In this document: in pieces, positions 5,841 through 30,540 of the stretch
Numbering within the stretch: position 1 is the first letter of the stretch
How the letters are laid out: the number at the start of each line of letters is the position of its first letter
Source of the DNA: Sphyrna mokarran
Lineage: Eukaryota
Direction of reading: 5' to 3'
DNA: 64,000 nucleotides
Assembly: GCA_024679065.1 (NCBI GenBank)
Contig: JAGIQG010000009.1
Coordinates: 81,530,001 to 81,594,000 of the forward strand
Translations under genes and position numbers: made by a program
Notes under the pieces: model-generated
Told to the model about the DNA's origin: nothing
The model's database searches: none
The model's input: the letters and a program-made list of their open reading frames with translations, nothing else

Positions 5841-6057
5841 CATTGATTGACAGTCCAAGCAACCAATCAGGACAATCACTTGGCGAAATGCAGCCAATCA
5901 GCTGATGGGGAGGTGGGACATTTCCAAAGCACTCACCAGACATATACTGAATATTCTTAATGTTTATTACCTTTTACACATTGACAGTGACAGAAAAAAG
6001 ACTTGAATAAACAGCCCAGCCAGAGGAAGCTGGAGAAATTCACAGGGAGAATGGAGG

Positions 6058-6063
6058 TTTATT
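6058..6063 (-). terminator. Polyadenylation signal of cluster 1 C exon
   Basis: AATAAA on the minus strand ~380 nt after the C stop codon; conserved in cluster 2 (33942-33947). Confidence 0.7.
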
Positions 6064-6442
6064 AAAACACTTGTGGAGATTTTCTCAATAACATGAGAAT
6101 CCTGTCCCTTTAAACAGTGACTAAATCTTCAATTGTAACTGCAAGGTGAGCAGGAAGGAGGTCTGGTTTACTAAAGCAGAAACTTCAGAGGGTCACATTC
6201 TTTCTGAACAGCTGACAGTCTTCACCACTCCCAATAAATGAACAGCACGGGGTTAATAGAGAGGAAAGTTCCCTCTACAATATCCCAACAATGTTCTTTA
6301 ACTCCTGACCCTCAGAAGTGTCTCAGACCCAGTCCCAGGAAGGAAGAGAATTGTAATTCAATGCTGACGGTGACCTTTACCCTTCCAGCTCACCCCTGTT
6401 CTATTCCAAGTTGTGTCTCCTCTGTGGACTGTCTCTAACACT

Positions 6443-6771
6443 CTAGGCACATTCTGAACTCCTGACACTCTTGCTGAGGGGAGAGGAGAGGCTCACGTGG
6501 GTGAGGGCACAGGAGAAGCGAGCATTGGACTCCCAGTCGGAGCCAGAGAGGGTCAGCAGGCTGCTGACGCTGTAGGTGTTGTCCGAAGCTCGCAGGTAGT
6601 TGCTGGTCTGAATCCCGTTGGAAATGGCTGCACCGTCCTTCTTCCACTTCACCTCCACCTCATCGGGATAGAAGTGATCGGCAAGGCACACCAGGGTGGC
6701 AGTGCCCTTGGTCTTGGCCTCCTCCGGGGAGGGGGGCAGCAGGGTCAGCGTGGGTTGTGAATTCTCACGGG
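6443..6771 (-). CDS. IGKC: Ig kappa (type III/NS4-like) light chain constant exon, cluster 1
   Basis: Acceptor TTTCAG, phase 1; (T)RENSQPTLTLLPPSPEEAKTKGTATLVCLADHFYPD..WKKDG..FSCALTH..SSECA*; C1-set Cys/Trp/Cys and penultimate interchain Cys; closely resembles the shark NS4 C region. Confidence 0.97.
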
Positions 6772-8579
6772 CTGAAAGAGAAGAGAAGGAATTTTAATCA
6801 CTGCCATTTTCAGCCTTTCAACATCCCGAATATTAACTGGGATCAAATCAGTGTCAATGATTTGATGTTGCAGAATTCTGAAAATCCATTCCAGGGGAAC
6901 GTTTTTAACCAGTACGGAGCAATCCCAACAAGAGAAGGGTCAATTTTAGCAGTTTTAGAGAATGAAACACAGCATGTGGAAGGTGTATCAGTGAGAGAGC
7001 ATTTGGGTAATAATGATCATAATAGATTTAGAGTAGCTCCGGAAAAGGGGAAAGATCGATCAAGAGTAAACGTTTTAAATGGGAAAAGGCCAATTTCACA
7101 ACAGTGGAATTTGTCAAAATGGAAAGGAAACAGTGACTTGAAGGTAAATCAGTGTCAGAGCAGTGGGAGGATATTCGAGCTGGAGATAGAGTTCAGGACA
7201 TATATGTTCATCAAGCAATAGTGTGGGACATTGCAAAGAGAATAACTAAGGATTAAATAGGGCTGATTAGAGAGCAAAAAGGTAACTTGTGTGTGGAAGG
7301 ACAAAGTTGACATTGTGGTTCAGGAGAGGAGGTATTGTGAAATAATTAATGGGATAATGATAGTGAGCGAGGAGATATTAATGTGTTTATCACCATTTAA
7401 AATGGAGAAATTCCCAGGGTCGGGTGAAATGTATCCCAGGATGTGAAGGGAAGCAAGGGAAGAAATAACAGAGACTCTGACCATTATTTTCCAATCCTCT
7501 CTGTGTACAGGTGTGGTATGGGTGGACTGGAGGATAGATCACGCTTTTTAAAACTAAAAGCTGATGGAATCCAAGGGAAAGTGGCACATTCGAATTCAAA
7601 TTAGTTCCGTGTCTGAAGGTAAAGGTTTGATTTGAAGCTGGTTAAATCATTTTGCAATCTTACTGAAACTGTAAAGAAGATTACTACAAATTCAGTACAG
7701 AAATGGTTAATTTTGAGAATATTTAAAGACACGGTGTCCCTTTAAGAGACTGTTAACCAATCAGGAAGCTGGAACTATTGCTCAGTCTGTCTGGGGGGAA
7801 ACAGGTTGAGCATCAACAAACCTCAGATCACACACGGATCAGGAGAACTTTATCCCAGAACATTGGAGCAGACTTGGATCAACACACTTCACACAGGATT
7901 CCCATTGGCTGGTGTGGAAACTTCGAGATTTCATTTCAAACCTTACTGTCCAGCATTGGGCTGAGGTCAAGGGTGAGGGTAGAATTCTTCCCAGGGTCCA
8001 GGGGTCAGACAGCGTCATTGCTACGAATGACCCCATGAACTCTGGAGGGTGCTTTTATGTTATGAATGGGAGAGAGTCAGGATCAGGAATCTCCAATCTC
8101 ACAGACAGAATTACATTTCTATAGCACCTGTCACCAACTCAGAATGTCCCAATGTTTTACAGCTCACTGTGCACAGCAAGATCCCAGGGAACAGAGTGCG
8201 AAAGAACAGATAAGCAGATTTGTAGTGATGTTGATTGAGGGATGAATATTGACCAGTTCACCGGGGTGAACTCCCCTGCTCTTCTTCCAATAGTACCATG
8301 GGATCTTTTACACCCCCTGAGACGACACATATCAAATTGTCTCATCTGAAAGATGGGAGGCCTGTAGTTTAGAGGAGGGGATATGACAGGTGCTGGCCCT
8401 TTCCCCATGAAGATTTTGGAAGTGGATGGGGAAAGTGGGAGGTGAACTAGAGAAACATCTTTGTTGCTGCTGAAACTCTTGCTATCTGCTCAGTCACAAC
8501 GAATAAACACACAGACACATCAGACAAACATCAGTCTGTTACTGTGGATTCTCTGCTGCTTTCAGTTCAATGAAGAGTG

Positions 8580-9420
8580 CAGGAAGACATGCCAGGAGCA
8601 ACAACAGACAGACTGAAAAATGAGGTGTTAACCTGGTGAAGCTACAACACAGAGACTGTGTGCCAAACAGCAGAAGCAGCAAGTGATAGACAGAGTTAAA
8701 CCGTCCCACAACCAATGGATCGGATCTAAGCTCTACAGACCTGCCACATCCAGCCATGAACGGTGGTGGACAATTAAACAACTCACTGGAGGACGAGGCA
8801 CCACAAATATTCCCATCTTCAATGATGGAGGAAACCAGCACATCAGTGCAAAAGATAAGGCTGAAGCATTTGCCAGAATCTTCAACCAGAAGTTCTGAGT
8901 GGATGATCCATCTCGACCTCCTCCAGAGGCCCTGAAGACTTCTACTCCAGAACTTTCCATGTCCCTAACCAAGCTGTTCCAGTACATCTACAACACTGGC
9001 ATCAACACAACATTGTGATAAATTACCCGGTTATGAACTGTGCACAAAAAACAGGACTAATCCAATCCTGCAATAACCACCCCATCAGTCTATTCTCGAT
9101 TATCAGCAATGTGATCTGAACATATCCAGAGCAATACCAAGCAGCACTTACTCAGCGATAATCTGCTCACTGACACTCAGTTTGTGTTCCACCAAGGTCA
9201 CTCAGCTCCTGATCTCATTACAGCCTTGGTTCAAACATGGAGAAAACAGCTGAACTCCAGAGGTGAGGTGAGAGAGACTGTCCTTAACATCAAGGCAGCA
9301 TTTCAGCAAGTGTGGCATCAAGGAGCCCTCACAAAACTGGAGCCAATGGGAATCAGGGGAAAACTCTCCACTGGTTGGAGTTGTACCCGGCACAAAGGAA
9401 GATGGTTGTTGTTTGGGGTT
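8580..9420 (+). mobile_element. Old decayed CR1/L2-clade LINE fragment in the J-C intron
   Basis: Degenerate RT motifs (IPIFNDGG..KDKAEAFA, HSAPDLITALVQTW, WHQGALTKL); shared with cluster 2 (37073-37915). Confidence 0.75.
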
Positions 9421-10201
9421 TGACTCTACAATCTATATTAATGAGCTGGATGAAGGGAATGAGAGGAATGTCACTAAACTTGCTGATGATAAAATGAAAA
9501 GTAGAAATGCATGTTGTGAGGTGGATACAGAGTCTGAAAAGGAATAGAGATAGGTTCAGTGAGTGGGGAAACATCGACAGATGGGGAATAATGTGGGAAA
9601 ATGAGGTTGTCCACATTGGCAGGAGAATAGAGCAGAATTCTAGTAAACTGGAGAAATTCTATTGAGTGATCTGGGTGTCTTTGCATCCAGGAACAGCAAA
9701 ATATTAGGAAGGCAAATGGAATGTTGCTCTTCATTCCAATGAGGATGAGTATAAAAGGAGGGATGTTTTACTACAGCACATTGGGAAAATCACACTGAGA
9801 ATATTGTGGACACTTAGGGTCTCCGTACTTAAGGAAAGATATAGTAGAATTGGAAAGAGTTCAGAGATGGTTCACTGGGCTGATTCCACCGAGTAAGGGA
9901 TTGTCTTACGAGGAAAGCTTGAGCAAGTTGGGCCAATACTCACTGAAGTAGAACTTATTCCACCGCCTCAGCACCATCTTCACCCGGGCAATTAGGGATG
10001 GGAGATAAATACTGGTCTGCAGAGAATCACAGGCAATAGGAACAGGAATAGGCCATTTGGCCCTTTGAGCCTGTTCCACTATTCATCATGGTCATGGCTG
10101 AGCATCCAATCAGTAGTTAGATCCTTTCTTCCCGTAAAATTATTTCATCCTTTTCATCCTAGTAGCTATATCTAACTCCTTCTTGGAAACGTACAATATT
10201 T

Positions 10202-13200
10202 TAGAACATTGAACATAGAACATTACAGCACAGAACAGGCCCTTTGGCCTTTGATGTTGTGCCGACCAATTATGAAAAAAGCAATGACCCTCCAAACTAA
10301 ACCATTCCCTTCTCTTCCATAAACTTATCAACTAACCTCTTAAACGCCACCAAAACTGGCACATCTACAACTGCTGCAGACAGGGCATTCCACTCCCTAA
10401 CCACCCTCTGGGTAAAGAACCTACCTCTGATATCCGTCCTATAACTATCACCCCTTAATTTAAAGCTGTGTCCCCTCGTGCTAGCTTTCTCCATCCTAGG
10501 ACAAAGGCTATCACTGTCCACCCTATCTAAACCTCTAATCATCTTATATGTTTCAATAAGGTCTCCTCTTAGCCGCCTTCTTTCTAACGAAACCAACCTC
10601 AAATCCCTCAGCCTCTCTTCATAAGACCTGCCCTCCATACCAGGCAACAGCCTGGTAAACCTCCTCTGTACCCTCTCCAATGCCTCCACATCTTTCTTAT
10701 AATGTGGGGACCAGAACTGCACACAATACTCCAAGTGCGGCCGCACTAGAGTTTTGTACAGTTGCAACTTGACGTTGCGGCTCCGAAATTCAATCCCCCT
10801 ACCAATAAAAGCTAAGACTCCATATGCCTTCTTAACAACCTTATCGACTTGATTGCCTACTTTCAGGGATCTATGCACACATACACCAAGATCCCTCTGT
10901 TCATCAACACTATTAAGAGTCCTACCATTAGCCCTATACTCTACGCATTTGTTATTCCTGCCAAAGTGCATTACCTCACACTTTTCCACATTAAACTCCA
11001 TTTGCCACCTCTCGGCCCAGCTCTGCAACTTGTCCAAGTCTCTCTGCCAACTATAACACCCCTCTTCACTATCTACCACTCCACCGACTTTAGTGTCATC
11101 TGCAAATTTACTACTCCATCCTTCAATACCCTCATCCAGATCATTTATAAAAATTACAAACAGCAGGGGCCCCAAAACAGACCCCTGAGGTACACCACAT
11201 GTAACCGAACTCCACGATGAATATCTCCCATCACCACCCTCTGTCTTCTATCTGCTAGCCAATTCCTAATCCAATTAGCTAAATCACTCTCAATCCCATA
11301 CATCTGCATTTTCTGCAGAAGCCTTCCATGGGCCACCTTATCGAATACCTTACTAAAGTCCATATATACCACATCAACTGCCTTACCCCCATCCACCTCT
11401 TTGGTCACTTTTTCAAAAAACTCAATCAGGTTAGTAAGGCACGACCTACCCTTCACAAAACCATGCTGACTATCCCCAATCAATTCATTTATCTCTAAAT
11501 AACTATAAATCCTATCCCTAATAATTCTTTCCAATACTTGGCCCACAACAGAAGTAAGACTCACCGGTCTATAATTCCCAGGAAAGTCTCTATTCCCCTT
11601 CTTGAACAATGGACCACATTCGCTATCCTCCAGTCTTCCGGCACTATACCCGTAACCAACGACGACCTGAAGATCAGAGCCAGAGGCTCTGCAATCTCCT
11701 CTCTCGCCTCCCAGAGAATCCTAGGGTAAATCCCGTCCGGCCCAGGGGATTTATCTAACTTCAAACCCTCAAGAATATCTAGCACATCCTCCTTATCTAC
11801 TTGAATACTTTCCAGTTTGCAACCCTGTATCCCAGTGTTCTCCACAACTACATTTACATCTCCCTGCGTGAATACCGAAGAGAAATATTTATTCAGTGCC
11901 TCTCCAATCTCTTCAGCTCCACGCACAACTTCCCACTGCTGTCTATGACTGGCCCTAATCTTGCCCTAACCAATCTTCTATTCTTAACATATCTAAAGAA
12001 AGCTTTAGGATTCTCCTTAATCCTATCAGCCAAAGTCTTCTCATGTCCCCTCTTAGCTCTCTTCAACTCACTCTTTAGCTCCCTCCTGGCTAATCTATAA
12101 CTATCCATTGCACTAACCGAGCCTTCAAGCCTCATCCTGACATAAGCCTCCTTTTCCCTTTTAACCAGCGAATTAACTTTTTTCGTACACCAAGGTTCCC
12201 TTACTCGACCATTTCCTCCTTGCCTGACAGGGATATACTTATCAAGGACTCGCAGCAGCTGCTCCTTGAATTAGCTCCACATTCCAGATGTTCCCAGTCC
12301 CTGTAGTTTCCTAGTCCAATCTATGCACCCTAATTCTCTCCTGATGGCCTCAGAATTACCCTTCCCCCAGCTATAACTACTGCCCCCAGCTTCATGCCTA
12401 TCCCTATCCATCACTAAGGTGAATGTAACCGAATTGTGGTCACTATCACCAAAAGGTTCACTAACTTCCAAGCCTAACACCTGGTCTGGCTCATTGCCCA
12501 GCACCAAATCCAGTGTAGCCTCACCTCTAGTTGGCCTATCTACATACTGAGTCAAAAAACCTTCCTGCACACTTTGTACAAAAACTGACCCCTCTAACGT
12601 GCTCGAGCTATAGCTATTCCAATCAATATTAGTAAAGTTAAAGTCCCCCATAACAATTACTCTATTACTTTCACTCCTGTCCAGGATCGACTTTGCAATC
12701 CTTTCCTCTACCTCTCTAGAACTTTTTAGGAGGTCTATAAAAGACTCCCAACAGGGTGACCTCTCCTCTCCTGTTTCTAATCTCAGCCCATACTACCTCA
12801 ACAGACAAGTCCTCATCAAACTTCTTTTCTATCACCGTGATACAGTCTTTGACCAATAATGCCACTCCTCCCCCCCTTCTACCTCCCTCTCTACTCCGAC
12901 TAAAGCATTTGTACCCCGGAACCTGCAACATCCATTCCTGTCCCTGCTCTACCCAAGTCTCTGAAATGGCCACAACATCGAAGTTCCAGGTACTGGTCCA
13001 AGCTGCAAGTTCCTCCACCTTATTGCGAATACTTCTTGCATTAAAGTATACGCATTTCAAACCATGCCCTACTCCACCCGTACACTGCTGTGCTTTACAG
13101 TTCTCATCTATGACCCCCCTATTCTCGTCCCTCTTAACATCCAAACTACTCAGGATCCCACCCCCCCTCTGAATCAGTTTAAACCCCCCTGCATAGCCTT

Positions 13201-14090
13201 TGCAAATTTTCCCCCCAAGATATTGGTTCCCCTCTGGTTCAGATGTAGACCATCTCTCTTGTAGAGGTCCCACCTATCCCAGAATGAGTCCCAATTGTTC
13301 AGGAACCTGACCCCTTCCCTCCTGCACCATCCCCGCAGCCACGAGTTCAAACATTCCCTCTCTCTGTTCTTCTCTAAACTATCCCGTGGCACAGGCAAGA
13401 GTCCAGAGATAACCACTCTGTCTGTTTTGGCCCTAAGCTTCCACCCCAACTCATAAATTTCTGTTTAATATCCCCTTCCCTTGTCCTACCTACATCATGT
13501 GTCCCTACATGAACTATGACTTGGGGCTGACTCCCCTCTCCCTTAAGAATCTTAAAAACCCGCTCTGAGACATCCTGGACCCCGGCCCCTGGGAGGCAAC
13601 ACACCAGCCCTGAGTCCCGTTTATTACTATTTATTCTCCTATCTGTCCCCCTAACTATGGAGTCTCCAATTACTAGGCCCAATCTCTTATTCCCCCTAGC
13701 CACCTGAGCATTCACAGCAGGCTCACCCCCAGAGACCTGCTCCCTTTGGCCATCTCCAATTGATTCTTCCTCAACTGTAGCCTCCAGGACAGAAAACTTG
13801 TTTTGGAGGGGAACAGCCCCGGGGGATTGTCTCCCCGATTGCTTCTTTTCCCTCTTCCTAATAGTTACCCAAGAATCACTTTTAGGAGTGACTATCTCTT
13901 TGTAACTCCTGTCAATATCCGCCTCAACCTCCCGAATTATCCTGAGTTCCTCTAATTCCAGCTCCAGCTCCTTAACACGATTCTCAAGGAGCTGCAAATG
14001 TGCACATTTCCTGCAGGTATAATCAGCAGGAACAGTACTAGTGTCCCTCACCTCGTACATACTGCAGGAGGTGCAACGTCCTGGTTTTGT
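10202..14090 (-). mobile_element. Near full-length CR1 LINE (ORF1 with Cys motifs, coiled coil and SGNH esterase; ORF2 APE-RT), frameshifted; cluster 1-specific
   Basis: ORF1 CTSC..CRKC, ENRVKELELELEEL, GDSIVRG, HVGTHD; APE YFNARSI, ISETW, GDFN, SDHN; RT NYRPVSLTS, FADD; 3' tail; empty site in cluster 2 at ~39630. Confidence 0.95.
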
Positions 14091-14316
14091 CCTCACCTGC
14101 TTTCTGTGACAGTGAATTCCACAGGTTTACCCCTCACTGGGTGAAGGAATTTCTCCTCACCTCAGTTCTAAAAGGTTTACCCCATATTCTCACACTATGA
14201 TGCCTCATACTGGATGCTCCCAGCATTGGGAACATGCTTCCTGTATCATTCCTGACGAATCTTGTTGGAATTTTATAGGTTTTTATGTGATCCCTGTCAT
14301 TCTTCTGAACTGCAGT

Positions 14317-14612
14317 GGGGGCAGCATGGTGACACAGTGGTTGGCACTGCTGCCTCACAGTGCCAGGGACCCAGGTTCAATTGCCAGCTTGGCTCACTGT
14401 TTGTGTGGAGTTTGCACATTCTTCCCATGTCTGTGTAGGTTTCCTCCACGTACTACAGTTTCCTCCCACAGTCCGAAAGGTGTGGAGGTTAGGTGAATTG
14501 GCCAAGCTAAATTCTCCGACAGAAGAGACACCAGAATGTTGCCACATGGCTATTTTCTCAGTGACTTCATTGCAGTGTGAATGTAAGCCTACTTGTGACT
14601 AAGAAATAAACT
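14317..14612 (+). mobile_element. tRNA-derived SINE
   Basis: GGGGCAGCATGGTGACACAGTGGTT..CCAGGTTCAATT head, GTGGAGTTTGCACATTC core, A-rich end. Confidence 0.85.
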
Positions 14613-15830
14613 TAAAAAAAACAATGCAATCTCTCCTCCAACATCCCACTATCACAGAAATCATTCCAGTAAACATTTGCTGCACTTCCTCTGTTGCAAA
14701 AGTATTCTTCCTCAGATGAGGGAATAAAACTGTACACATTATTCCCAGTGTGGTCTCGCCAAGACCCTGTATAACTGCAGAAAGACAGAATTACAAGGGA
14801 CAGGGATAGGGGAGATATGAGGAAACTTTTCCCCTTAATCACAGAGGCAGCAGATTCTGAGGGAATTGAGGGAAATCTTTTCACCCAGAGGGTGCTGGGA
14901 ATCTGGAACTCACTGCCTGAAAGGATGGTGGAGGTGGGAACCTTCACAACATTTAAGAAGCTTTTAGATGAGCACTTGAAATTCCAAAGCAAACAAAGCA
15001 ACGGATCAAATGCTGGAAAATGGGATTAGAATCGAAAGATGCTTAATGGCCGGCACTGACATGGACAATAGAATCTCTGAAGTGCAGGCGGAGACCATTC
15101 GGCCCATCGAGTCTGCATCGACTCTTACCGCATAAACCCCATGTATTTACCTCACTATTCCCCCTAACCTTTGAGAATTTTATAAGTCTCCACGAGTTGT
15201 TTCCTCATTCCTCTGAACTCCAGTGAATAAAAGTCTTAATCAACTCTATCTCTCCTCATACATCAGTCCCATTATAACAGGAATCAGTCTGGGATGCCTC
15301 CTCTGCACTTCCTCTTGAGCAAAAATATCCTTCCTGAGATAGGGAGACAAAACTGCGCACAATATTCCCAGTGCTGCCTCACCAAAGCCCTGTATAACTG
15401 CAGCAGGTCAGAATTAAGAAGACATAGAGCAGATACGAAAGAACTTTTCCCCTTTTAGCAGTAGATTCAAAAACCAGGTAGCATAGATTTAATTTCAGAA
15501 GCAGAAGATTTTGAGGGATTGGAGGAAAAACCTTTTCACTCAGAGGGTGTTGGGAATCTGGAACTCACTACCTGAAAGGGTGCTAGAGGCAGGAACCCTC
15601 ACAACATTTAAGAAGTATTTAGATGAGCATTTGAACTTCCAAAGCCGACAAGGTTATGAATCAAGTGTTGGAAAATGTGATTAGAATAATTAGGTGCTTG
15701 ATGGCCAACAGAGACAGGATGGGCTGAAGGGCTTCTTTCTGTGCTGTAAATTTCTATGGCATTCTGACTGAGCCAAGAGGTAAATGATGAGAATGTAAAA
15801 TTACTATCTTCTGGAAAATTCTGATGTGCA

Positions 15831-16035
15831 TAGAACATAGAACATTACAGTGCAGTACAAGCCCTTCGGCCCTCGATGTTGTACCGACCAGTGAAACCAA
15901 TCTAATGACCCTCTAACCTAAACTATTCCAATATTATTCCTATGCCTATCCACTGACCATTTGAATGCTTTTAAAATTGGCGAGTCCACAACTGCTGCAG
16001 GCAGAGCATTCCACGTCCTTACTACCGTCTGAGTA
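15831..16035 (-). mobile_element. Short CR1 3'-end insertion
   Basis: TAGAACA tail repeats followed by CR1 3' UTR and the end of ORF2; not present at the paralogous site in cluster 2. Confidence 0.8.
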
Positions 16036-17118
16036 ATTGCAAAAGTCTGCGGGTTAGATGGATTGCCCCTAGTGTGTTCTTTATGTGGGTTAGCAATGGT
16101 GAATGTGCAGGGTTACAGGGACCCTGGATAAGAAGCTCTTTTGGAGAATTGGGTGAAAAGATTTCCCTCACCTCTCTCAAAATCTGCTGCCTCTGTGATT
16201 AACGGGAAAAGTTTCCTCATATCTACCCTATCTCTGTCTCTCATAATTCTGTCGATGGGCTGAATATCCTCCTCCTGCACTGTAGGGATTCAATGGCTAA
16301 TAAAAAACTACACGGACTGTGTAAGATTTCCACGGGTGAAAGGATCCATTTTAAATGAACCTTGTTGTCACCAATTGAGGGCAGGATTCCAGCTGATTAC
16401 TATCTCACCCAGAGGAAAACAAAATTGGGATCCTGTTCAGGAAGTTAACAAATGAAGGACCCTGTCTGAGGACTGGTCACAACATGTACACAGCAAGATC
16501 CCACACACAGCAATGAGAACAATCAGCATTTTCAGTGATATTGGATGTGGAATAAATTTTGGATTGAACTCATCCCAAAGGAAAAGTAATAGAGTCTCCC
16601 CAAAAGCCTGGAACATTGAAGCCACTGGATTGTGACCCTGCTGTGGCTGTTTGTCATCAGAACTTCAGCAAGAGATAAGCAGGGAGTGGAGAGAGCAGAG
16701 TGAAAGCTGGGGCAGGTGACACCTCGGTGTCTCACTGTGCTGCTGCTGTGATCAGTTATATCAGAGAGTGAGACAGAGAGTTCAACTTCACATCAAACTC
16801 TGCCTGTGTGTGTCACAGTGAGACCGACAGGGGTCTAGAGAGTGATTTCACTCCATGCTGCAGGAATGTGAACACAGTCTGCAAACGTCCAGATCTCCTC
16901 CACACGGTGGGTAAAAGCTGCTTACTGAAATCTTGCTGTTTAAAGGGGGGAATGGAAGGAAAGAAATACAGCTGGACTCCCTGTTCTACACAATGTTCTT
17001 CAATCAACCATTTCATTGACTGCAACTTCCTCACTAACACCTTCAACTATTCAGTATTTGTGTTTGAGAAAGTTTCAGCATTGAAAGGGTTAATAACGGA
17101 GGATTGGGCTTTACTTAC

Positions 17119-17153
17119 TCAGTCTGAGTTTGGTTCCTTTAGAAAACGTAAGG
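17119..17153 (-). CDS. IGKJ: Ig kappa J segment, cluster 1 (LTFSKGTKLRL)
   Basis: C CTT ACG TTT TCT AAA GGA ACC AAA CTC AGA CTG A|GTAAGT; flanked by a 23-RSS; phase matches the C exon. Confidence 0.95.
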
Positions 17154-17192
17154 CACACTGACAGCTTCCAGTGCAGGAGCTGTACAAAAACC
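17154..17192 (+). promoter_or_regulatory. 23-bp spacer recombination signal sequence of J1
   Basis: CACACTG (17154-60) + 23 nt + ACAAAAACC (17184-92). Confidence 0.95.
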
Positions 17193-17460
17193 TCTGTCTC
17201 TGACTCACTCACTCACTCACTCATCTCTTTCTCTCTCACTCTTTCTCTCTCCCTGTTTCCCTGAATGTCTCTGTGTTTTATTGAGAGAGTTGAGAATTTT
17301 AATTTGAGATGATAAATCTTTCAGCTGCTCTTCATATGTGAACATGGAGAGTAAGAGGGAAACTCGAGGCCTTCAGTGAGCGGTGGACACCACAGGGACT
17401 GGAGTGTGTAGTGGACAGTGCAAATAATTTGTTCAGTTTCCTTTCTTGTGTTTGTTAATT

Positions 17461-18120
17461 ATTATATAAAACTGTGGGATGTGTCAGTACAGGAGGTGGG
17501 ACTGTGTGTCCATTATTATATATTATATAAAACTGTGGGATGTGTCAGTACAGGAGGTGGGACTGTGTGTCCATTATTATATATTATATAAAACTGTGGG
17601 ATGTGTCAGTACAGGAGGTGGTGCTGTGTGTCCATTATTATGTATTATATAAAACTGTGGGATGTGTCAGTACAGGAGGTGGGACTGTGTGTCCATTATT
17701 ATATATTATATAAAACTGTGGGATGTGTCAGTACCGGAGGTGGGACTGTGTGTCCATTATTATATATTATATAAAACTGTGGGATGTGTCAGTACAGGAG
17801 GTGGTGCTGTGTGTCCATTATTATATATTGTATAAAACTGTGGGATGTGTCAGTACAGGAGGTGGGACTGTGTGTCCATTATTATATATTATATAAAACT
17901 GTGGGATGTGTCAGTACAGGAGGTGGGACTGTGTGTCCATTATTATATATTATATAAAACTGTGGGATGTGTCAGTACAGGAGGTGGGATTGTGTGTCCA
18001 TTATTATATATTATATAAAACTGTGGGATGTGTTAGTACAGGAGGTGGGACTGTGTGTCCATTATTATATATTATATAAAACTGTGGGATGTGTCAGTAC
18101 AGGAGGTGGGACTGTGTGTG
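17461..18120. repeat. 61-bp minisatellite, ~11 copies, filling the V-J intervening sequence
   Basis: Unit ATTATATAAAACTGTGGGATGTGTCAGTACAGGAGGTGGGACTGTGTGTCCATTATTATAT. Confidence 0.97.
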
Positions 18121-18124
18121 TTGG

Positions 18125-18152
18125 GGTTTTTGTAAGGCTCTGTATCACTGTG
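18125..18152 (-). promoter_or_regulatory. 12-bp spacer recombination signal sequence of V1
   Basis: CACAGTG + ATACAGAGCCTT + ACAAAAACC, perfect consensus heptamer and nonamer; V-12/J-23 is the kappa configuration. Confidence 0.97.
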
Positions 18153-18450
18153 CAGGGCCAGCTGTGACATTGCTGACAGTAATAATCAGCGACATCCTCA
18201 TTCTGAACATTGCTGATTGTCAGGGTGAATCTTGTCCCAGATCCACTGCCGCTGAATCGGTCGGATACTCCTGTGAATCGAGTTGATGCAGCATAGATCA
18301 GCAGAGCCGGTTTCTGTCCTTCTCGCTGTTGATACCAACTCACATAGCTGCTAACAGATTGACTGGCCGTACAGGTGATGGTGGCGGTCTGGCCCAGGCT
18401 CACTGACAGCACCGGGGGAGTCTGGGTCATGATGATCTCTCCATTGATAC
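18153..18450 (-). CDS. IGKV: Ig kappa V exon, cluster 1
   Basis: Acceptor CCCTCAG; (G)[56 protein letters not shown]; open frame ending at the RSS. Confidence 0.97.
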
Positions 18451-18636
18451 CTGAGGGGTAATAGAGAAACAGAGTGAAGTCAGAACTGTCACAGAAAGAG
18501 GCTGTACAATGAGATATTGTTGAAGACACCGACTGTTCATCTCCTTTCAACATTTTCCCTTCAATCACAAGTCAGGAGAATTGGATTGAAATGGAGAGCA
18601 GGAAAATATTCAAGGTGGAAGGAGAGAGATTAGTAC

Positions 18637-18685
18637 CTGCGATGCAGAATGCCAGAGGCCAGAGCAGCTGGATGGCTGAAATCAT
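18637..18685 (-). CDS. IGKV: Leader (signal peptide) exon, cluster 1: MISAIQLLWPLAFCIA(G)
   Basis: 49-nt exon from ATG to G|GTACTA donor; phase 1 matches the V exon. Confidence 0.92.
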
Positions 18686-18744
18686 GGTGTGTGCTCGTGT
18701 CCCTGTGCCTGTTACTGATAAACTCTCCCTTCACTGGGCTCTGC

Positions 18745-18840
18745 TTTATAAAGCTGCAGCCTGTGAGAGTCTCACTGCCTGTTCCTCAGTTCGTTAATGG
18801 TTTGACCCAGAGAAACCACGTCAGCACCTTTCACTTCCTC
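18745..18840 (-). promoter_or_regulatory. V1 promoter: TATA, CRE-like and Ets-IRF motifs
   Basis: TTTATAAA 18745-52 (60 nt 5' of ATG), TGACGTGG 18816-23, GAGGAAGTGAAA 18829-40. Confidence 0.7.
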
Positions 18841-19012
18841 TTCTTCTCTCTCTATCCCTCAGTCTCTGTCCCTCAGTCTCTGTTTTTCACTCTGTCAATA
18901 TCTTTCCCTCACTCGCTGTCTCTCTCTCTCTCTTACTCTCAATATCTGTCCCTCAATCTCTGTCTCTCTCATTCCTTTGGTATCACTCCCTCAATTCTTA
19001 TCTCTTCCATTC

Positions 19013-20968
19013 ATAGAACATAGAACATTACAGCGCAGTACAGGCCCTTCGGCCCTCGATGTTGCGCCGGCCAGTGGACCCTCTAACCTAAACTATTCCA
19101 ATATCATCCATATGCCTATCCACCGAACATTTGAATGCCCCCAAAGTAGGCGAGTCCACAACTGCTGCAAGCAGGGCATTCCACGCTCTCACCACCCTCT
19201 GTGTAAAGAACCTGCCTCTGACATCCGTCCTATAACTACCACCTCTAATTTAAAGTTATGTCCCCTCGTGTTGGTCATCACCATCCGAGGAAAAAGGCTC
19301 TCACTATCCACCCTATCCAGTCCTTTGATCATCTTATACGCCTCAATTAGGTCACCGCGTAACCTTCTTCTTCTCTAATGAAAATAACCTCAGGTCCCTC
19401 AGCCTTTCCTCATAAGGCCTTCCCACCATACCAGGCAACATCCTGGTAAACCTCCTCTGCACCCTTTCCAATGCTTCCACATCTTTCTTATAATGCGGCA
19501 ACCAGAACTGTACGCAATATTCCAAGTGCGGCCGCACCAGAGTTTTGTACAGTTGTAACATAACCTCACGGCTCCTAAATTCAATCCCTCTACTAATAAA
19601 AGCTAACACACCGTACACCTTCTTAACAACTTTATCAACCTGGGTGCCAACTTTCAAAGAGCTATGTACTTGTACCCCAAGATCCCTCTGCTCGACAACA
19701 CTATTAAGGGTCCTTCCATTAGACCTATATTTCATATGCCTGTTATTCCTACCAAAGTGAATCACCTCACACTTATCCGTATTGAATTCCATTTGACACC
19801 TCACGGCCCAGCTCTGCAACCTATCTATGTCCCTCTGCAAACTGTAACATCCATCCTCGCTGTCTACAACTCCCCCCACTTTGGTATCATCAGCAAATTT
19901 ACTAATCCAACCCTTTACACCCTCATCTAGGTCATTTATAAAAATGACAAACAACAGTGGCCCCAAAACAGATCCTTGAGGTACACCACTTGTAACTGCA
20001 CTCCAGGTTGAATATTTCCCATCAACCACCACCCTCTGTCTTCTATCAGCTAGCCAATTCCTAATCCAAATGCTAAATCACCTTCAATCCCATGCATCTG
20101 CACTTTCTGCAGTAGCCTACTATGGGGAACCTTATCAAACGCTTTGCTAAAATCCATATACACTACATCAACTGCCTTACCCTTATCTACCTCTTTGGTC
20201 ACCTCCTCAAAAAACTCAATACGGTTTGTGAGGCACGACCTACCCTTCACAAAACCGTGCTGACTATCCCTAATCAATTTATTTCTCTCTAGATGCTTAT
20301 AAATCCTATCCATTATAATTCTTTCCAAGACTTTGCCCACAACAGAAGTCAGGCTCACCGGTCTATAATTTCCAGGATGGTCCCTACTCCCATTTTTGAA
20401 CAAAGGGACAACATTTGCCATCCTCCAGTCTTCCGGCACTATATCTGTAGTCAACGGCGACATGAATATCAAAGCCAAAGGCTCTGCAATCTCCTCTCTA
20501 GCCTCCCAGAGAATCCTAGGGTAAATCCCATCTGGCCCAGGGGACTTATCAATTTTCATACTCTCAAGATTCGCTAACACCTCCTCCTTATGAACCTCAA
20601 TCCTACCCAGTCTACAACCTGGTATCACAGTATTCTCCCCGACAACATTGTCTTTCTCCTGCGTGAATACTGACGAAAAATACTCATTCAGTGTCTCTCC
20701 TATCTCCTCAGGCTCCACGCACAACTTCCCACTGCTATCTCTGACTGGCCCTAATCTTGCCCTAACCAATCTTTTATTATTTATATACCTGTAAAAAGCT
20801 TTAGGATTCTCCTGAATCCTATCCGCCAAAGTCTTCTCGTGTCCTCTTCTAGCTCTTCTCAACTCCCTCTTTAGCTCCGTCCTGGCTAATTTATAGCTCT
20901 CCAGTGCCCTAACTGAGCCTTCACGTCTCATCATTATATAAGCCTCCTTCTTCCTCTTCACCAGAAGT
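19013..20968 (-). mobile_element. 5'-truncated CR1 LINE upstream of V1; cluster 1-specific
   Basis: RT ORFs 19352-20032 and 20050-20991; TAGAACA tail; absent at the paralogous site ~47490. Confidence 0.93.
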
Positions 20969-21189
20969 CCCTCAGTCTCTGTGTCCCTCATTCTATTGAT
21001 ATCACTCCCTCAATTCTTATCTCTTCCATTCTTTGAGTGACTCTCCATTAGTCTCTGTTTCTATCCACTCTCACTGTCTCCCTCTTTTCATTCCTGTCTC
21101 ACTCTCTTTGTTTACCCTCTTGTTCACTCTTTCTTTCTCCTCATTCTCCCACTCTCTATTTCTCTCAGTTTTTCCCTCACTTCATCTCA

Positions 21190-22140
21190 TAGAGTCATAG
21201 AGGTTTACAGCATGAAAACAGGCCCTTCAGCCCAACTTGTCCATGCTGCCTTTTTTTTAAACCCCTAACCCCAGTTGCTGCATTTGGCCCATATCCCTCT
21301 ATATGCATCTTATCCATGTAACTGCCTAAATTCTTTTTAAAAGACAAAATTATACTCACTAATTCTACGAAAACCTCTGGCAACTTGTTCCAGACAATCA
21401 CCACCCTCTGTGTGAAAATATTGCACGTTTGGACACTTTTGTGTCTCTCCTCTCTCACCTTAAACCTATGCCATCTAGTGTTAGACTCCCCTAACTCTGG
21501 GGAAATGATATCGAATATCTGGTTGATCTATACTCCTCATTATTTTATAGACCTCTGTAAGATCACCCCTCAGCCTTCTATGCTCCAGGGAAAAAGTCCA
21601 GCCTCTCCTTATAACCCAAATCAAGTTCTGGTAGCCTCATAGTAAATCTTTTCTGCATTCTTTCTAGTTTAATAATATCCTTTCTATAATAGGGTGACCA
21701 GAATTATATACAGTATTCCAAATGTGCCCTCACTAATGTTCTGTATAACTTCAACAAGACGTCCTGATTCCAGTATCCAATGTTCTAATCAATGAAACCA
21801 AGCATCAGAATGCCTTCTCCAGCACTCTGTCTGCCCGTGACTCCACTTTCAAAGTGCTATGAACCTGTATCCCTGTAATTCTTCCCAATGCCCTACCATG
21901 AACTTAGTAAGTCCTGCCCTGGTTCAATCTACCAAAATACCTTGCATTAATCTAAATTAAACTCCAGTTGCCATTCATCAGCCCACTGGCCTAATTCCAG
22001 TTGCAATTGGAAATAACTTTTTTCACTGTCCACTATGCCATCTATCTTGGTGTCATTTGCAAACTTACTAACCATAACTCCTATATTCTCGTCCATATCA
22101 TTAATATTAAGCACAAATCACAGTGGACGCAGCATCGGTC
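21190..22140 (-). mobile_element. Older CR1 fragment shared by both clusters
   Basis: FTQRVVIVWNKLP motif and CATAGAGT tail; paralogue at 47657-48335. Confidence 0.8.
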
Positions 22141-23225
22141 CCTATGCTGATTCTCAGCATAGTGCCACCACTGATTCTCTTTGTTCCTCTGTATTCACAT
22201 CTCATTCTGCCCTAGAAGAGGCGCCATCCTCCTGGTATCCACTCTGTCAATCCCCTCACAATGTGATATGTTTCAATAAGATCACCTCTCATTCTTCTAA
22301 ATTCCAGTCGGTTCAGGCCCAACTTGTCCAACTTTTCTTGAAATGATAACCTTTCATCCAGGAATGTGTCGAGTGAATCTTCTCTGAACTCCTTCTAATG
22401 CAATGAAATCCTTCTTCAAATAAGGAAATCTAAACTGTACTCAGTATTCCAGATGTGGTCTCACCAAGACTCTGTACAGCTGTGGTAAAACTTCCCTATT
22501 TTTATATTCCATTCCATTCCATTCCATGTAATGTTTATTACATTATCATGTAATAAACACCAAAATTCCATTTGTCTTCCTAATCACTTGCTGTAGCTGC
22601 AGACTAAATGGTTGTGATTCATGTCCCAGGACAGCCAGATCCCTCTGTAGCACCGAGTTGTGCAATCTCTCTCCATTTCAATAGTTTACTGCTTTTCTAT
22701 TCTTCCTGCCAACGTGGACACTTTCACATTTACCCAGAGTGTACTCCAAATGTTTAGCCACTCACTTCCCCTGTCTCTATCTGTTTGAAGACTTTCTACT
22801 TTGTCTTGATAACTTTCTTTCCCCGTCTATCTTAGTGTCAGTGGGTCATTAGTTCAATTCAATCCTTTCATCCAAGTCATTGATATGGATTGTGAATAGT
22901 TGTGGTCCCAGCACTAATTGTTTAAGAACTCCCCTAATTACAGCTTCCCAACCCCAAAATAAACATTTATCCCCTCTCTCTGGTCTCTGTTAACTAATCA
23001 ATCCTCTATCAATGCTAATATGTTACCCACACACCATCTTCTTACCCACACACCATCACATCTTGTGTAGTAATATTTAATGTGGCAATTTATTAGATAC
23101 CTTTTCGAATTCCCTGTCACAGCTACAAGTTGCCCGTTATCTATTTTGTGACCTCTGAAAAGGTGGACAATGAGATATGTAAAACAGAAAGAAACTGCTT
23201 CACATCGCTGATGATGTCCATGCTC

Positions 23226-23335
23226 CACTGGAGCCTCCAATAGGGACCAGTAAACATTGGTCTCCTTCCCACTGGAGCCTCCAATAGGGACCAGTAAACG
23301 TAGGCCTCCTTCCCACTGGAGCCTCCAGTAGGGAT
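23226..23335. repeat. 44-bp minisatellite, ~2.5 copies
   Basis: CCACTGGAGCCTCCAATAGGGACCAGTAAAC..CCTCCTTC unit; expanded in cluster 2. Confidence 0.85.
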
Positions 23336-23989
23336 CACAGAGATTTACTGCATTTCAAGAGAGCCTTCGGCCCAAGTTATCCATGTCGCCTCAGTGATCT
23401 ATCACCCCTGAGCTCACTGATCTATCACCCATGACCTCAGTGATCTATCACCCCTGACTTCATTTACCTTTTACCCCTGACCTCACTGACCTGTCACCCC
23501 TGACCTCACTGTCTTCCAATTCCCTCCATGGTCTTACTCCTCCCTACCCCTGTGTTCCTGCTCCAGATTCACATTTCTCCCTCACCTTCTATCTATTGAC
23601 TCTGCTCCCTAGCCAATCGCTGCTTCCTTCATCCCACCATTGACAGCAGCGTCTACAGATGCCCAGGTCCTGCTTTCTGTCCTCCCACCCTTAATCCCTC
23701 CCCCTCTCCAAATCTTTCTCCCCATCAAACTCCATCCTTTCACCCAAGCCTTTGATCTCTCTTCCTAAACTACCTCCAGCCCCTCCCCCATTCCGCTTAT
23801 GCTGCTCTGTGAAACATAATGGGCGATGTTGTACACTAAGGTGCTATATAAATTCAGGTTCTGTGTAGATTTTGGTTGGGGACAGAATTAGACACAGTGG
23901 TGAAGGATCTTGCAGTCAAATATCCTGCTGACAGGATCCAGACTTCAACACACAGAATGGGACATTGTGTAAAGTAGGAATTATTAAAA

Positions 23990-24910
23990 ATGTATTCATT
24001 GACGGGATGTGGGTGTCACTGGCTATCCCAACATTTATTGCCCATCCCTAATTGTCCTTGCGAAGATGATGATGAACTGCCTTCTTGAACTGCTGCAGTC
24101 CATAAGGTGTAGATACACCCACAGTGCTGTTAGGGAGGGATTTCCAGGATTCTGACCCAGCGACAGTGCATGAACAGAGATGTATTTCCATTTCAGAATG
24201 GCATGTGGCTTGGAGGGGAATCTCCTGGTGATGTTGATCCCAGGGATCTGCTACACTTGTCTTTCCAGATGATAGTGGTCATGGGTTTCGAAGGTGCTAC
24301 CTCAGGAACCTTGGTGAGTTCATGCAGGGCATCTTATAGATGGCACACACTGCTGCCACTGTTCGACAGCGGTGGAGGGATTTAATGTTTGTGAATGGGG
24401 TGACAATCGAGTGGGCTGATTTGTTCTGGATGATGTTGAGCTTCTTGAGTGTTGCTGGAGCTCTACTCATCCAGACAAGTGGTGAGTATTCCATCACACT
24501 CCAGACTTGTGCCTTGTAGATGGTGGAGAGGCTTTGGAGAGTCAGGATGTGAGTTACTCACTACAGGATTCCTATCCACTGACTTTCTCTTGTAGCCACA
24601 GTATTTATAGGCTGGTCCACTTCAGTTTCTGGTCAATCATAACCAACAGGATTTTACAGTGGGGGATTCAGCGATGGTAATGACATTGAATGTCAAGGGG
24701 AGATGTTAAAATTCTCTCTTGTTGGAGATGGTGATTCCGTGGTACTGATGTGGCATGAATGTTACTGCTTCAATATCTGAGGAGTTGTGAATGGTGCTGA
24801 GCATTGTGCAATCATCAGTGAACATCCCACTTCTGAAGGTCATTACTGAAGCAGCTGAAGATGGTTGTGTCTCAGACACGACCCTGAGGAATTCCTGCAG
24901 TGATGTCCCA
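23990..24910 (-). mobile_element. Old decayed CR1/L2-clade LINE 3' portion
   Basis: MEYSPLVWMS..TLKKLNIIQNK motif; typical 3' end CATTTATTGCCCATCCCTAATT; paralogue at 49770-50690. Confidence 0.75.
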
Positions 24911-27900
24911 GGATAACTCCCTCCTGACTGTATCCCACTGTGCCTTCTGTGCTGGGAGATTGGAGGTAGTGAACACGGTTCACCATTTTCTCCTGTCTCA
25001 GTAACAAACATCCAGCTGCTCTGAGCTCCTTCTTTCACTTCCTCTGTTGGTTACGTTTCAATCTTCCGATCTGACAGTCTTTGCAGTTATTTTTGACACT
25101 GGGGATTTGTGCTGTGGTCTGAATCTCTAACAATAACTGTCCAATCAGTGAAAAGAACAACAGCTCAGAGCAGTCAGGACTGAGGAGCCAGGCTCACTGG
25201 GAAACACATTGGGAAGATCAAAGACATGGTCTTCAGCTCCCGATACAAACTCCATCCCTCCCCCCTGAGCACTGTCTGCTGCATCGGCACCCCCACATCC
25301 CCCATTTGCGATTGTTTCCCCAACCTACTTCCCCACTGCCCTGATCACAGGCCCCGACTTCCCCATCCCCACCTCCCCTTCCCCCATAGACTGACCTCAT
25401 GATGGCTTCCCCACCTCCTCCAATTGCCGTCCCTGACACCCCACTCGCTAATCACCAGCCTCCTCCCAATGGCTTCCTCAACTGGAAGGTTCCTGCTGAA
25501 CTCAGCAACAACTCTGGTCTCCCCCACCACCGCCCCACCTTCTCCACACACCAGCTTCTAACCAAACATCAGCGATGGAATTGTAGAGACATGCAGGAAG
25601 AAACTTTAGTAAAAGTCAAACCAGCTTTACCGTCATCGTCACTGCTGATGCACTTTGACCCGAGCAAACCATTCGGAATTATTTGTGACACCTTGCCATT
25701 CTTTGCAGGGGGAATGAACACACAGTAGACGGACAGTTGGGAGTGAAGTTCAGTCAGATATAGAAGGAAAAGTCGGTCAATCCAGCAGGCAGGGAAGACT
25801 TGGGCCTGATAAGGCATGTGGGAGGATTGGAACGCTAAACAGCATCTGTTTTAATACAAGGAGCCTGTCTGATCAGGCAGATGAACTTAGAGAGTTGGTC
25901 AGCACGGGGAAATATGAGATTGTTGTAATCATTAAGACATGGTTGAAAGAAGGACAGGGACTGGAATCTCGACATTCCAGGGTACAGAAGTTCCAGGTGG
26001 GATGGGGATGAGGGGGTGTGTAAGATCGAAAGGGATATTGTTTTATTGATTAAAGAGACCAAGCCTGCAGTAATGAGGGAGAGATATTGGAACGCTCTTC
26101 AAATGAGGTCATATGGGTGGAGCTGAGAAATAGAATTGTACTGGGATTATAGCACAGCCCTCCCAACATTCAGAGGGAAATAGAGCAGCAGATATGTAGC
26201 AAATCACAGAGAGAGACATGAGAGGAATAAGGCTATAGTAATAAAGGATTCCAACTTCACCAATATTAATAGAATCACCTGAGTGTGAAATGTTTAGACA
26301 GGGTGGAATTTTGGAAGTGATTCCAGGAGAGCTTTTTCTGTCAGTAGATAGATAATCCAACTCAGGATGGCCCGTGCTCGACCTAATCGTTAGGAATGAA
26401 TCTGGGCAAGCTGTTGAAGTGTCAGTGGGGTGTGCATTTTGGGGATGGGGTAGATGGACAGAGCAATGAAACATGGAATTTAATCCTGATAAGTGTGAGG
26501 TGCTGCATTTTGGAAGATTTTGTAAAGGTAGGATATACACAATGAACGGTGGGTCCCGAGGGAGAATTGAAGATCAAAGGGACTTTGGTTTACAAATCCA
26601 TGGATCCCTGAAGGTTGCATTACAGAGAGAGAATGCGATGAAGAAGGCTTCATTAGCTTGACTTCATTAGCCAGAGTTCGAATACGGGAGCAGGTAAATG
26701 GGATTGGTATAGATTGGTATTGGATGGTCAGCATAGACATGGTGGGCCGAAGGGCCTGATTCTGTGCTGTGTAACTCGATGACACTATATGGACTCGGAG
26801 CAATTCTATCCCATAGACTGAAGGATGGAATGGAGAGGCTAAATTCATTTGTTTTGAGGACTTTGTCAGACGTTGAGAAAATCTCCTCACAAATTCACAT
26901 AGAAAGCCCGGCAGCTATCCACACAGTGAAAAATTTCACCAATATGTCTGTGGGCAGCATTTCACCATCGTGTCAGACCATAAGCCATTGTTAGAGCTTT
27001 TTCAGGACATTAAGCCAGTGCCACCTATTGCCTCTGCCAGGGTGCAGAGATGGGCACTGCTGCTGGCCAGCATAGGCCGGGAACACAGATCTCAAATGCA
27101 GATGCATTGAGCCGCCTGCCACTACCACAGACCATACCGTCACCGCCTGTTCCACAGGAGATAGTATTGGCTCTGCATTATTTGGACACCCCGCCTGTCT
27201 CAGCAGCCCACATTGAGATGTGGACAGATAGGGAGCTGGTGTTAGCAAAGGGCAGGAAAATGGTACTGACCGGGAGGCACTTCGACAAGGCAGAGCAAAT
27301 GAAGCTGTAATTACATTGCAGGGACCAGTTACCCTGTAAAGAGGGGGTGCTATTGTAGGGTGTCAGTTTCATGGTATTACCCCTTGTGCAATGGCCACTG
27401 CTCCAAAAGTTACATGAGACCCAAATTGGCCAGAGGAGAACTAAAGTGTTGGTCAGTAGTTATGTCTGGTGGCCTGGCATTGACAAGACATTGAACAAAT
27501 GGTTGAGCAGTGTGAGAGTTGTCCCACTCAGCAAGTGTTACCTCCATCAGTGAACATGCTCCCTTGGTCACGGCTTCGTGTAGGTTTTGGACAGATGTTC
27601 CTGGTGTTAGTCGATGCCCATTCCGAGTGACTGGACGATCAGATCATGAGACCCATCACATCCTCCATTTACCATCGATAAACTGAGGGAGATCTTTGTG
27701 ATCCATGGTCTTCCTGAAGTGTTGCTATCAGACAACGGAGCAGCATTCACGCTGATGAATCTCAGACTTTGATCAAGTCTAATGACATTTGTCATGTCAG
27801 ACCAGCCCCCGACCATCCTGCCTCGAATGGGTTGGTGGAGCGAGCCATGCAATGTTCAAGGCTCCACGTGAAGCAGGTTCATGGGCCGCTGCCATTGCGA

Positions 27901-27961
27901 TTGGCCAGTTATTTGCTGTCCTACAACACTACACCTCACACCATCACTGGGGTCATGCCGG

Positions 27962-28119
27962 GGTAAGAAATCAGTAAGAATTTAGCAACACCAATTTTAA
28001 ATCCAACCGATTTATTTGATAGTAAAATTGCGAGCTTTCAACACTCTGTGCCTTCGTCAGGCAAATGCAGTGTTCTGGTCTGCAATAGCACACATCAGCA
28101 CAGCCAGTCAGAGATTCAC
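27962..28119 (-). mobile_element. Penelope-like terminal fragment nested in the Gypsy integrase
   Basis: Strong identity to the arm at 1149-1240; splits TGVMP/ELLMGR; CCGG at both ends. Confidence 0.75.
28028..28064 (-). ncRNA. Minimal type I hammerhead ribozyme motif
   Basis: UUGC CUGACGA A GGCAC AGA GUGUU GAAA GCUC GCAA: stem I, core, stem II, palindromic AGCU helix III and CUC cleavage triplet. Confidence 0.65.
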
Positions 28120-28679
28120 CCGGAGAGTTGTTAATGGGTCGGTGCCTGTGTATCTGTTTAGATTTAGTGTTCCCAAGTTTGTTGGGGAGGATGGAGGCTC
28201 AGCGAGCCTCTCAGAAAGGGTATCGTGACTCTCAGAAAGGGGACAGATTGTTTAATGATGGCGATCTCATGTTGAGAGGGAATTTGGATGGTGGACCCAG
28301 TTGTGGAGAAGACAGGACCAGTCTCATATTTGGGGGAGACACAGGGCTGTGGAGTTAAGGAACATATTGGTTACCTACGCAAGAGACTAGAGCAAGCTCC
28401 AGGAGATGAGCAATTGGGCCCCGTAACCAGTTTGTGTGTACCAGCCTCTGAACAAGACAATTCCATGTCCATCGTGTGGCCAAGGCAGTGTCTGTCTTGG
28501 GTGGGTGAGTCAGAGCTGTCCAAGGCCTAGCTCCAGAGATGGTTAGCACATCCATCCCATCAGTGGATCCTGTATCGATGGCTGCTGAAGTGCCCCTGAT
28601 AGAGTTGCAGCATTCTGCAAGGTTCCAGAAATCTCTGGACCAGCTGACATGATGAACTGTCTTTCCCTGGTGTCCCTCC

Positions 28680-29029
28680 TGTAATATTGTTGTTTCTCTG
28701 CCTGTGTGTTAACTGTTGTACTTTTTGTTTGATCACAGGGAGTCCAAGATGTTCCAGGGGAAGGAGTGTGTGAGCCTGGCCCCTTTAAGGGGCAATCCTT
28801 CACAGGCCACATGACCAGACCGGATCCAATGGACTGTGAGGATGTGAACCTGGGCCAATCGGGAGTGAGGGTGATCATTCCTGGGACTGGAGGCTTCAGT
28901 TGGAGTCAGGATGTTGTTGGTAATAGAGCTGTTTGTTTGTGTTGTTAAACCCTTCATTGGAAATACTTCTTCTCATCAATAAAGCCTTTAGTTAGTTATT
29001 TCCAAATCCAGTCTCCTCCACTTATTACA
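28680..29029 (+). mobile_element. Probable LTR
   Basis: TGTAAT...ATTACA inverted termini, internal TTTAAG and AATAAA (28978); lies downstream of the Gypsy integrase; no clear PPT or TSD. Confidence 0.45.
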
Positions 29030-29664
29030 ATCAGCATCTCTCCCACTTTGGATAGCAACAGTCTCTGATGACATCAAATACACACACTAACTATTCAACT
29101 CCAACAGTTTCACCAGCTGCTGTCACCCTCCCTACTTCCCTCCATTTATTCTGCATTCTCACCATCTCCCCTCGATTTCTCACTGAATCCTCCACTTTCC
29201 TGGTCTTTCCTCTGTCCAGGTTCACCTGCCCCCTTCCCCTTGGGATTGTTCCATTGCTTTGTTCCAGAAACTTTCTGGTTGTGGTCAGGCTTCTCTCCAC
29301 TGCAACCCGAGACATTCGGTCTGGGCTCGTGTCGATGTTTAACATTCTGTCCCACCTTGGACTGAATACATAACCAGTGAGGGTCCGACCCACACGATGA
29401 GAGTTTGTCACCGTAAAGGAGTCAGGGATCCCGAATGCTGCCATATAACCTGTGTGGGATAATTATTCACTGGATTTAGTTCAGAGTTACAGAATATTGG
29501 ATGTTGTTTTGGAACAAAGGGAAATCTCAATGTTCAGGAAACAGAGGTGATTGAGGAGAAAGAGGGAGCTTCATGTGACAGTGTGTGTGTCTAGCCCTCA
29601 GTTCATGCATTTAGTTAAATGCATTGTTGTGTATTATAGAGTTTGTGTGTTTTGTTTTCTTTCT

Positions 29665-30540
29665 ACATGTTGTTGATAGTCTGGAGGGATGTCTGAAGTT
29701 GCAGCGAGACATAGATAGGATGCAAGACTGGGCGGAGAAGTGCCAGATGGACTTCAACGCAGATAAACGTGTGGTGCTCCATTTTGGCAGGACCAATGGA
29801 ATGAAGCAGTATAATATCAATGGTAGGAGTCTTGGCAGTGTTGAGGAGCAGAAGGATCTTGGGGTCCAGGTCCATAGGTCTGTTAAATCTGCCCCTCAAG
29901 TGGAGGATGTGGTCAAGAAGGTGTACTGGCCTTCATTAATAGAGGAATTGAGTTTAGGAGTCAGGAGGTAATGCTGCAACTTTATAAGACCCTTGTTGGA
30001 CCCCACTTGGAGTATTGTGTGCAGTTCTGGTCACCTCATGATAGGAAGGATGTGGAAGTTATTGAGAGGGTGCAGAGGAGATTCACAAGGATGTTGCCTG
30101 GATTGGGGGGCATGCTTTATGAAGATAGATTGAGAGACCGAGGTCTCTTCTCCCTGGAGAGACGAAGGTTGAGAGGAGACCTGATAGAGGTTTATAAGAT
30201 GTTGAAAGGAATTGATCGAGTGGATTCTCGGAGGCTATTTCCCAGGGATGAAATGGTCACTATGAGAGGACACAGGTTTAAGGTGCGAAGGGTAAGTACA
30301 GAGGAGATGTTAGAGGTAAGTTCTTCACTCAGAGGGTGGTGAGTGAATGGAATCGGTTGCCATTAGTGGTGGTAGAGGCGAACTCGCTGGGGACTTTTAA
30401 GAGACTTCTGGATGAGTATATGGGATTTAATGGGTTGGGAGTTACAGATAGTTCTATGGCCTGGTAAGTATAGATATGATCGGCACAACTTATGGGCCGA
30501 AGGGCCTGTTTGTGCTGTAGTGTTCTATGTTCCATGTTCT
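29665..30540 (+). mobile_element. 5'-truncated CR1 LINE
   Basis: [38 protein letters not shown]; TGTTCTA tail. Confidence 0.92.

Follow-up and report, generated by a model that had tools for sequence, protein, structure and literature searches.

Cluster 1 of the 64,000-nucleotide stretch of DNA analysed here (the window) is, as judged from its sequence, a shark immunoglobulin kappa (NS4/type III) cluster. The cluster is intact in sequence, and the two halves of the cysteine pair in its CDR-L3, a fixed Cys91 codon and a TG left at the V end, are probably two independent one-base variants of tyrosine codons that met by chance in one gene, part of the joins then carrying a C-x4-C loop with a putative disulfide. 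The features on which this reading is based are collected in Table 1.

Table 1. Features of cluster 1 and of the regions compared with it (window coordinates).
Feature	Position	Strand	Remarks
V-J-C light-chain cluster 1		-	split V and J; one V, one J, one C
Octamer-position promoter element	18791..18798	-	reads ATTAACGA; putative role, from position
TATA-like box TTTATAAA	18745..18752	-	
Leader exon, 49 nt	18637..18685	-	intact, GT donor
Leader intron, 186 bp	18451..18636	-	186-base skip spanned in a contig from run X7
V1 exon, kappa type	18153..18450	-	open; conserved Cys23 and Cys88 (Cys88 at 18178-18176)
TGT, fixed germline Cys, CDR-L3 position 91	18167..18169	-	
V-terminal TG	18153..18154	-	Cys96 only if retained and if C or T comes next in frame
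V 12-RSS	18125..18152	-	consensus
61-bp minisatellite, 10.8 copies	17460..18119		V-J interval of cluster 1
J 23-RSS	17154..17192	-	one heptamer mismatch, common to the whole family
J1, motif F-S-K-G	17119..17153	-	intact GT donor at 17118
C1 exon, 108 codons	6443..6771	-	open; one private Val-to-Ala change
Cluster 2 (L004) J and V, comparison cluster	45517..46923	-	J at 45517-45551; Tyr at both CDR3 positions
Block with cluster 1	1910..36463		recurs 56,938 bp onward at G000:C1548:81588848-81623401

Cluster 1 was assigned to NS4/type III kappa because of its 12/23 RSS, its three-residue CDR2, its similarity to kappa chains, its 186-bp leader intron and its near-matches to NS4 primers. The 12-bp spacer lies on V and the 23-bp spacer on J, which is the kappa order; the accessible part of PMC5985310 describes the shark kappa type as 12/23 and gives CDR2 lengths of 3 residues for kappa, 7 for sigma-2 and 9-10 for sigma. 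The CDR2 of V1 is AAS, with three residues and without gaps relative to kappa chains of the PDB. V1 shares 88% identity with P0114, a protein from Scyliorhinus with the name kappa light chain-like, and 78-82% with unnamed Chiloscyllium V genes. An alternative identity as sigma-2/NS5 was rejected in view of the Scyliorhinus kappa match, the NS4 intron and primers, and the kappa RSS order and CDR2. The F-G-x-G expected of a kappa J was not found in J1, which reads F-S-K-G; this is a local departure that leaves the isotype unchanged.

The arrangement is the same as in nurse shark NS4 and horn shark type III kappa as far as these are described in the text of Lee 2000 (PMC2193156): V and J are split, the cluster is of the V-J-C type, and the leader intron has 186 bp. 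In a comparison by eye, the NS4 primers showed two mismatches each to the leader and FR1 of cluster 1. In NS4, according to the same text, the octamer lies upstream of a PstI site and this site before the leader, and cluster 1 likewise has a PstI site between the octamer position and the leader, in the same order. Differences from that description concern the V-J interval, which spans 270-2026 bp across clusters L001-L026 and contains a minisatellite, as compared to about 500 bp in NS4, the J motif, which is mostly F-A-K-G here, unlike NS4, and the absence, among 26 V matches, of germline-joined genes, a class that makes up about 10% of the NS4 genes in nurse shark. The 61-bp minisatellite is also present between the RSSs of cluster 2 (window 45869-46592), and it or the interval length might affect the rearrangement frequency of each cluster.

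The coding frames, RSSs and splice sites of cluster 1 showed no stop, frameshift or defect, and the perfect 12-RSS of V1 has two exact matches in the window, as compared to none in 100 shuffles. In contigs of six runs, leader and J-C splicing was found at the expected bases, the J-C splice in contigs of runs X3 and X15 lying at the base equivalent to the J1 donor. These six runs were among 21 listed; none of their contigs, which drop rare variants and probably derive from different organisms, matched cluster 1 specifically in the alignments listed, a result without bearing on the expression of this cluster.

On the minus strand, V1 ends in CAG CAA TGT CAC AGC TGG CCC TG (last base 18153) and J1 starts, behind its 23-RSS, with C CTT ACG TTT at 17153, exactly as quoted in the first-pass annotation. 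Its observation that a flush join of the two is in frame and gives cysteines spaced as C-x4-C was reproduced, the cysteines falling at L91 and L96; also correct are its points that a P-nucleotide C would complete the codon as TGC, the first P nucleotide of this V end being expected to be C, and that the flush join of cluster 2 is in frame and gives tyrosine at both places instead of a cysteine pair. We propose that RAG would join V1 to J1 within the cluster, with trimming and addition of N and P nucleotides, as in nurse shark NS4, for which the text of Lee 2000 (PMC2193156) reports cDNAs with trimming, P regions and probable N regions. Where joining spares the V end and places C or T directly after it in frame, Cys96 would arise opposite Cys91, most plausibly in a loop of nine residues, whereas loss of the V end or another base in this place would leave Cys91 unpaired.

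Enumeration of joins with V trimmed by 0-9 and J by 0-7 bases and no bases added gave 27 in-frame products out of 80, two of them with C-x4-C, two with C-x2-C and 23 with a single CDR3 cysteine. This bears out the claim that the second cysteine requires an untrimmed V end. That trimmed joins leave a free cysteine, as the first-pass annotation further held, is true for most joins (23 of the 27) but not for intact V combined with J trimmed by three, which retains C-x4-C in a loop of nine residues instead of the ten of the flush join; the latter had been presented as the route to the pair, and it is neither the sole nor the likeliest one. In toy models of trimming and N-addition, with 12 settings that are arbitrary and ignore microhomology, 28-84% of the productive joins had two cysteines. 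Junctions from transcripts of related organisms were available as 18 records among those listed, decoded by hand from six coded contig runs, and two of the records may represent one clone: the CDR3 had nine residues in 12 of these, eight in four and ten in two, and a flush Tyr-Leu-Thr join was found in none of the 18. Because these junctions are mostly of nine residues and never flush, the likelier two-cysteine product of V1 is probably the 9-residue loop, and the flush 10-residue loop is probably not the main one. Five records have a Tyr-Thr ending, as would result if the V end stayed whole and J lost three bases, or if J started with Tyr like J2; judged by these endings, V ends may often escape trimming and the two-cysteine form may be frequent. 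No cysteine occurs in the visible letters of the 18 records, which represent other clusters or species, not V1.

A search of the genome detected at least 26 V matches on one scaffold within about 0.78 Mb (G000:C1548:81.08-81.86 Mb) and 29 matches to the C exon. All 26 V matches are split and accompanied by RSS and J, none is germline-joined, and both orientations are present. V1 itself was found twice, as L001 and L002, within a block of 34,554 bp repeated at 100.000% identity with zero mismatches; both copies begin at the first base past a 100-N gap, and the identity between them drops to about 94% at one point within a J-C intron. The repeat is probably an assembly duplicate, either a false duplication or two haplotypes set in tandem. 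On account of this identical, gap-flanked block, L001 and L002 were taken as a single gene instead of two, and L002 was dropped from all paralog counts, leaving 25 independent V genes. The CDR3 pattern of V1 occurs in the genome only at L001 and L002, and the V genes with the nearest frameworks, L003 (98.5%) and L004 (97.3%), both have tyrosine at both CDR3 sites.

Further peculiarities of the family were noted. The J motifs of the 25 clusters are F-A-K-G in 14, F-G-K-G in nine and F-S-K-G in two, the first glycine of F-G-x-G being substituted in 16 of these kappa J segments. Elsewhere, this glycine is generally described as nearly invariant. Joins with F-A-K-G are present in contigs of run X1, and those seen in runs X2, X3 and X7 are F-G-K-G. 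Each C exon is followed, at a distance of about 2.8 kb on its downstream side, by a 23-RSS-like sequence with three mismatches (window 3646-3684, 31533-31571 and 60584-60622), which may be a chance sequence copied along with the duplication of the clusters. Two C exons (among L054, L062 and L050) contain an extra cysteine, and one broken C exon was found among three C matches crowded near G000:C1548:81.703-81.705 Mb.

Within this family, Cys91 is encoded by two of the 25 V genes (V1 and L014) and the TG end is found in three (V1, L007 and L010); V1 alone combines both. The probability of at least one overlap by chance is 0.23 (hypergeometric, 25 genes), or 0.33 when the comparison is restricted to the 17 genes whose ends have the same length, although the test concerns one event and has little power, so that P = 0.23 is also compatible with selection. 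Position 91 is hypervariable, with nine codons (TAT in 7 genes, GAT 4, AGT 3, TGG 3, TGT 2, CGT 2, GGA 2, GCT 1 and GGT 1), and 16 of the 23 non-cysteine codons are one substitution away from TGT; the V genes end in TA in 21 cases, in TG in three and in TT in one, and TA to TG is a single transition. Both cysteine halves are hence one-step variants of tyrosine codons of the family. We favor a chance meeting because the halves occur alone in L014, L007 and L010, because their overlap lies within P = 0.23, and because both are one base from family codons; a disulfide formed in V1 would then be a by-product of this pairing of variants. The description of the pair as programmed is not supported, on the same grounds, namely the singly occurring halves and an overlap of one in 25 that is within chance. 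An in-frame flush join is the default of the family, found in 18 of the 25 clusters, and its frame is therefore no sign of design. Against a chance meeting it may be held that the cysteines occupy 91 and 96, two positions that could plausibly pair, and that none of the parts of the cluster (leader, V and its RSS, J donor, C) is damaged. The products of L014, L007 and L010 would carry an unpaired cysteine. Lone Cys33 codons are present in three other V genes (L019, L022 and L024), and the V of L024 contains a stop codon and a further Cys53 in addition. L010 and L014, each with one half, form a sister pair with modest support (88/74), a grouping that leaves room for an older two-cysteine lineage dispersed by gene conversion.

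Cluster 1 might instead be a decaying or weakly transcribed paralog, its cysteines belonging to a series of changes that escaped selection and hardly enter antibodies, if at all. Three private substitutions lie within 11 bp of its promoter (window 18792-18802), the third at 18802 and the other two inside the octamer-position element 114 bp 5' of the ATG, for which 23 of the 24 other clusters read ATTTACAA; as many private promoter changes were found only in L023 (six) and in the stop-carrying L024 (three). The F-S-K-G motif of J1 (two of 25) and the private Val-to-Ala change in C1 would fit the same picture. However, decay of cluster 1 is unlikely, as its sequence is free of stops, frameshifts and splice or RSS defects, the branch leading to V1 is short (0.008 as compared to a median of 0.016), and the putative function of the promoter element is assigned by position, the family form already deviating from the octamer consensus. 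A reduced use of cluster 1 is possible.

That the pair was selected, with the TG end offsetting Cys91 and B-cell selection retaining untrimmed joins to yield a disulfide-stapled CDR-L3, appears quite unlikely. It is true that the C-x4-C spacing is the motif of human D2-2 (PMC11775173, accessible part), that the flush join, trimming of J by three and a P nucleotide each complete the cysteine codon, and that the 9-residue V1 loop, as found in a PDB search, has the canonical kappa L3 length of solved antibodies such as infliximab and fits them without gaps, with cysteines at 91 and 96. Nevertheless, the halves are found singly in three clusters with an overlap within chance, the pair is present in one independent gene only, and Cys91 is absent from the four relatives compared in other sharks (three from Chiloscyllium and one from Scyliorhinus). 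Still less probable is the more specific proposal that a junction-completed cysteine evolved to staple CDR-L3 through Cys91-Cys96, B-cell selection reading the untrimmed V end and junction processing acting as an on/off switch of the disulfide; no linked cysteine pair is conserved across the paralogs or species compared, and the germline supplies two of the three bases of the second codon, at a V end subject to trimming.

Where both cysteines are present, a bond between them may form. Residues L91 and L96 are opposed across the kappa L3 hairpin, and a Cys91-Cys96 disulfide is therefore sterically plausible. For the unjoined V, extended into the RSS, AlphaFold2 gave from a 5-row alignment a model with a mean pLDDT of 72.5 that is weak over CDR3 (about 57), and a two-cysteine L3 was absent from the best five of 3894 PDB matches to the CDR3 stretch. 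As for joins with one cysteine, the available part of PMC12639604 reports that secukinumab functions with an unpaired cysteine in CDR-L3, whose removal lowers affinity about tenfold, and by analogy a free cysteine in this loop need not be fatal. Secukinumab resembles V1 in that its Cys97 lies near the end of CDR-L3 and its free thiol is tolerated; it has this single cysteine, whereas V1 adds a second, fixed one at position 91. Among antibody sequences, extra cysteines were given for 1% of the therapeutic ones and for 2.8-7.6% of the others, with chains pooled (PMC10957075, accessible part). In human IGHD2-2, the two cysteines of the CX4C in CDR-H3 have the same spacing, but a single D segment contains both codons (PMC11775173, accessible part), whereas the loop described here belongs to a light chain, its second codon is split by the junction and it is found in one of 25 genes. 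The word cysteine is absent from the text of Lee 2000 (PMC2193156), and a two-cysteine CDR-L3 in sharks was not found among the titles and abstract openings searched, most subscription journals and the figures and supplements on NS4 lying outside this scope; similar cases may be present in NS4 sequence figures or supplements.

Non-canonical CDR3 disulfides are known from IgNAR, where extra cysteines occur in the CDR3 of a shark V domain, as in V1. The IgNAR types, which are single-domain antibodies, have conserved, family-wide cysteines that staple a long CDR3 either to the framework or to CDR1; the V1 loop, by comparison, is short, its chain pairs with VH and its cysteines are sporadic. If the pair in V1 were selected, it would represent a natural disulfide within CDR-L3 and would offer a clean internal test of receptor quality control for free versus paired thiols, since one cluster yields both forms; if a staple had indeed evolved there, it would be the light-chain counterpart of heavy-chain CX4C loops. 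As it stands, the pair is a sequence quirk of one paralog in a well-known gene family, a minor curiosity of an ordinary gene, and specialists may find the loss of the first F-G-x-G glycine from 16 of the 25 kappa J segments of greater interest.
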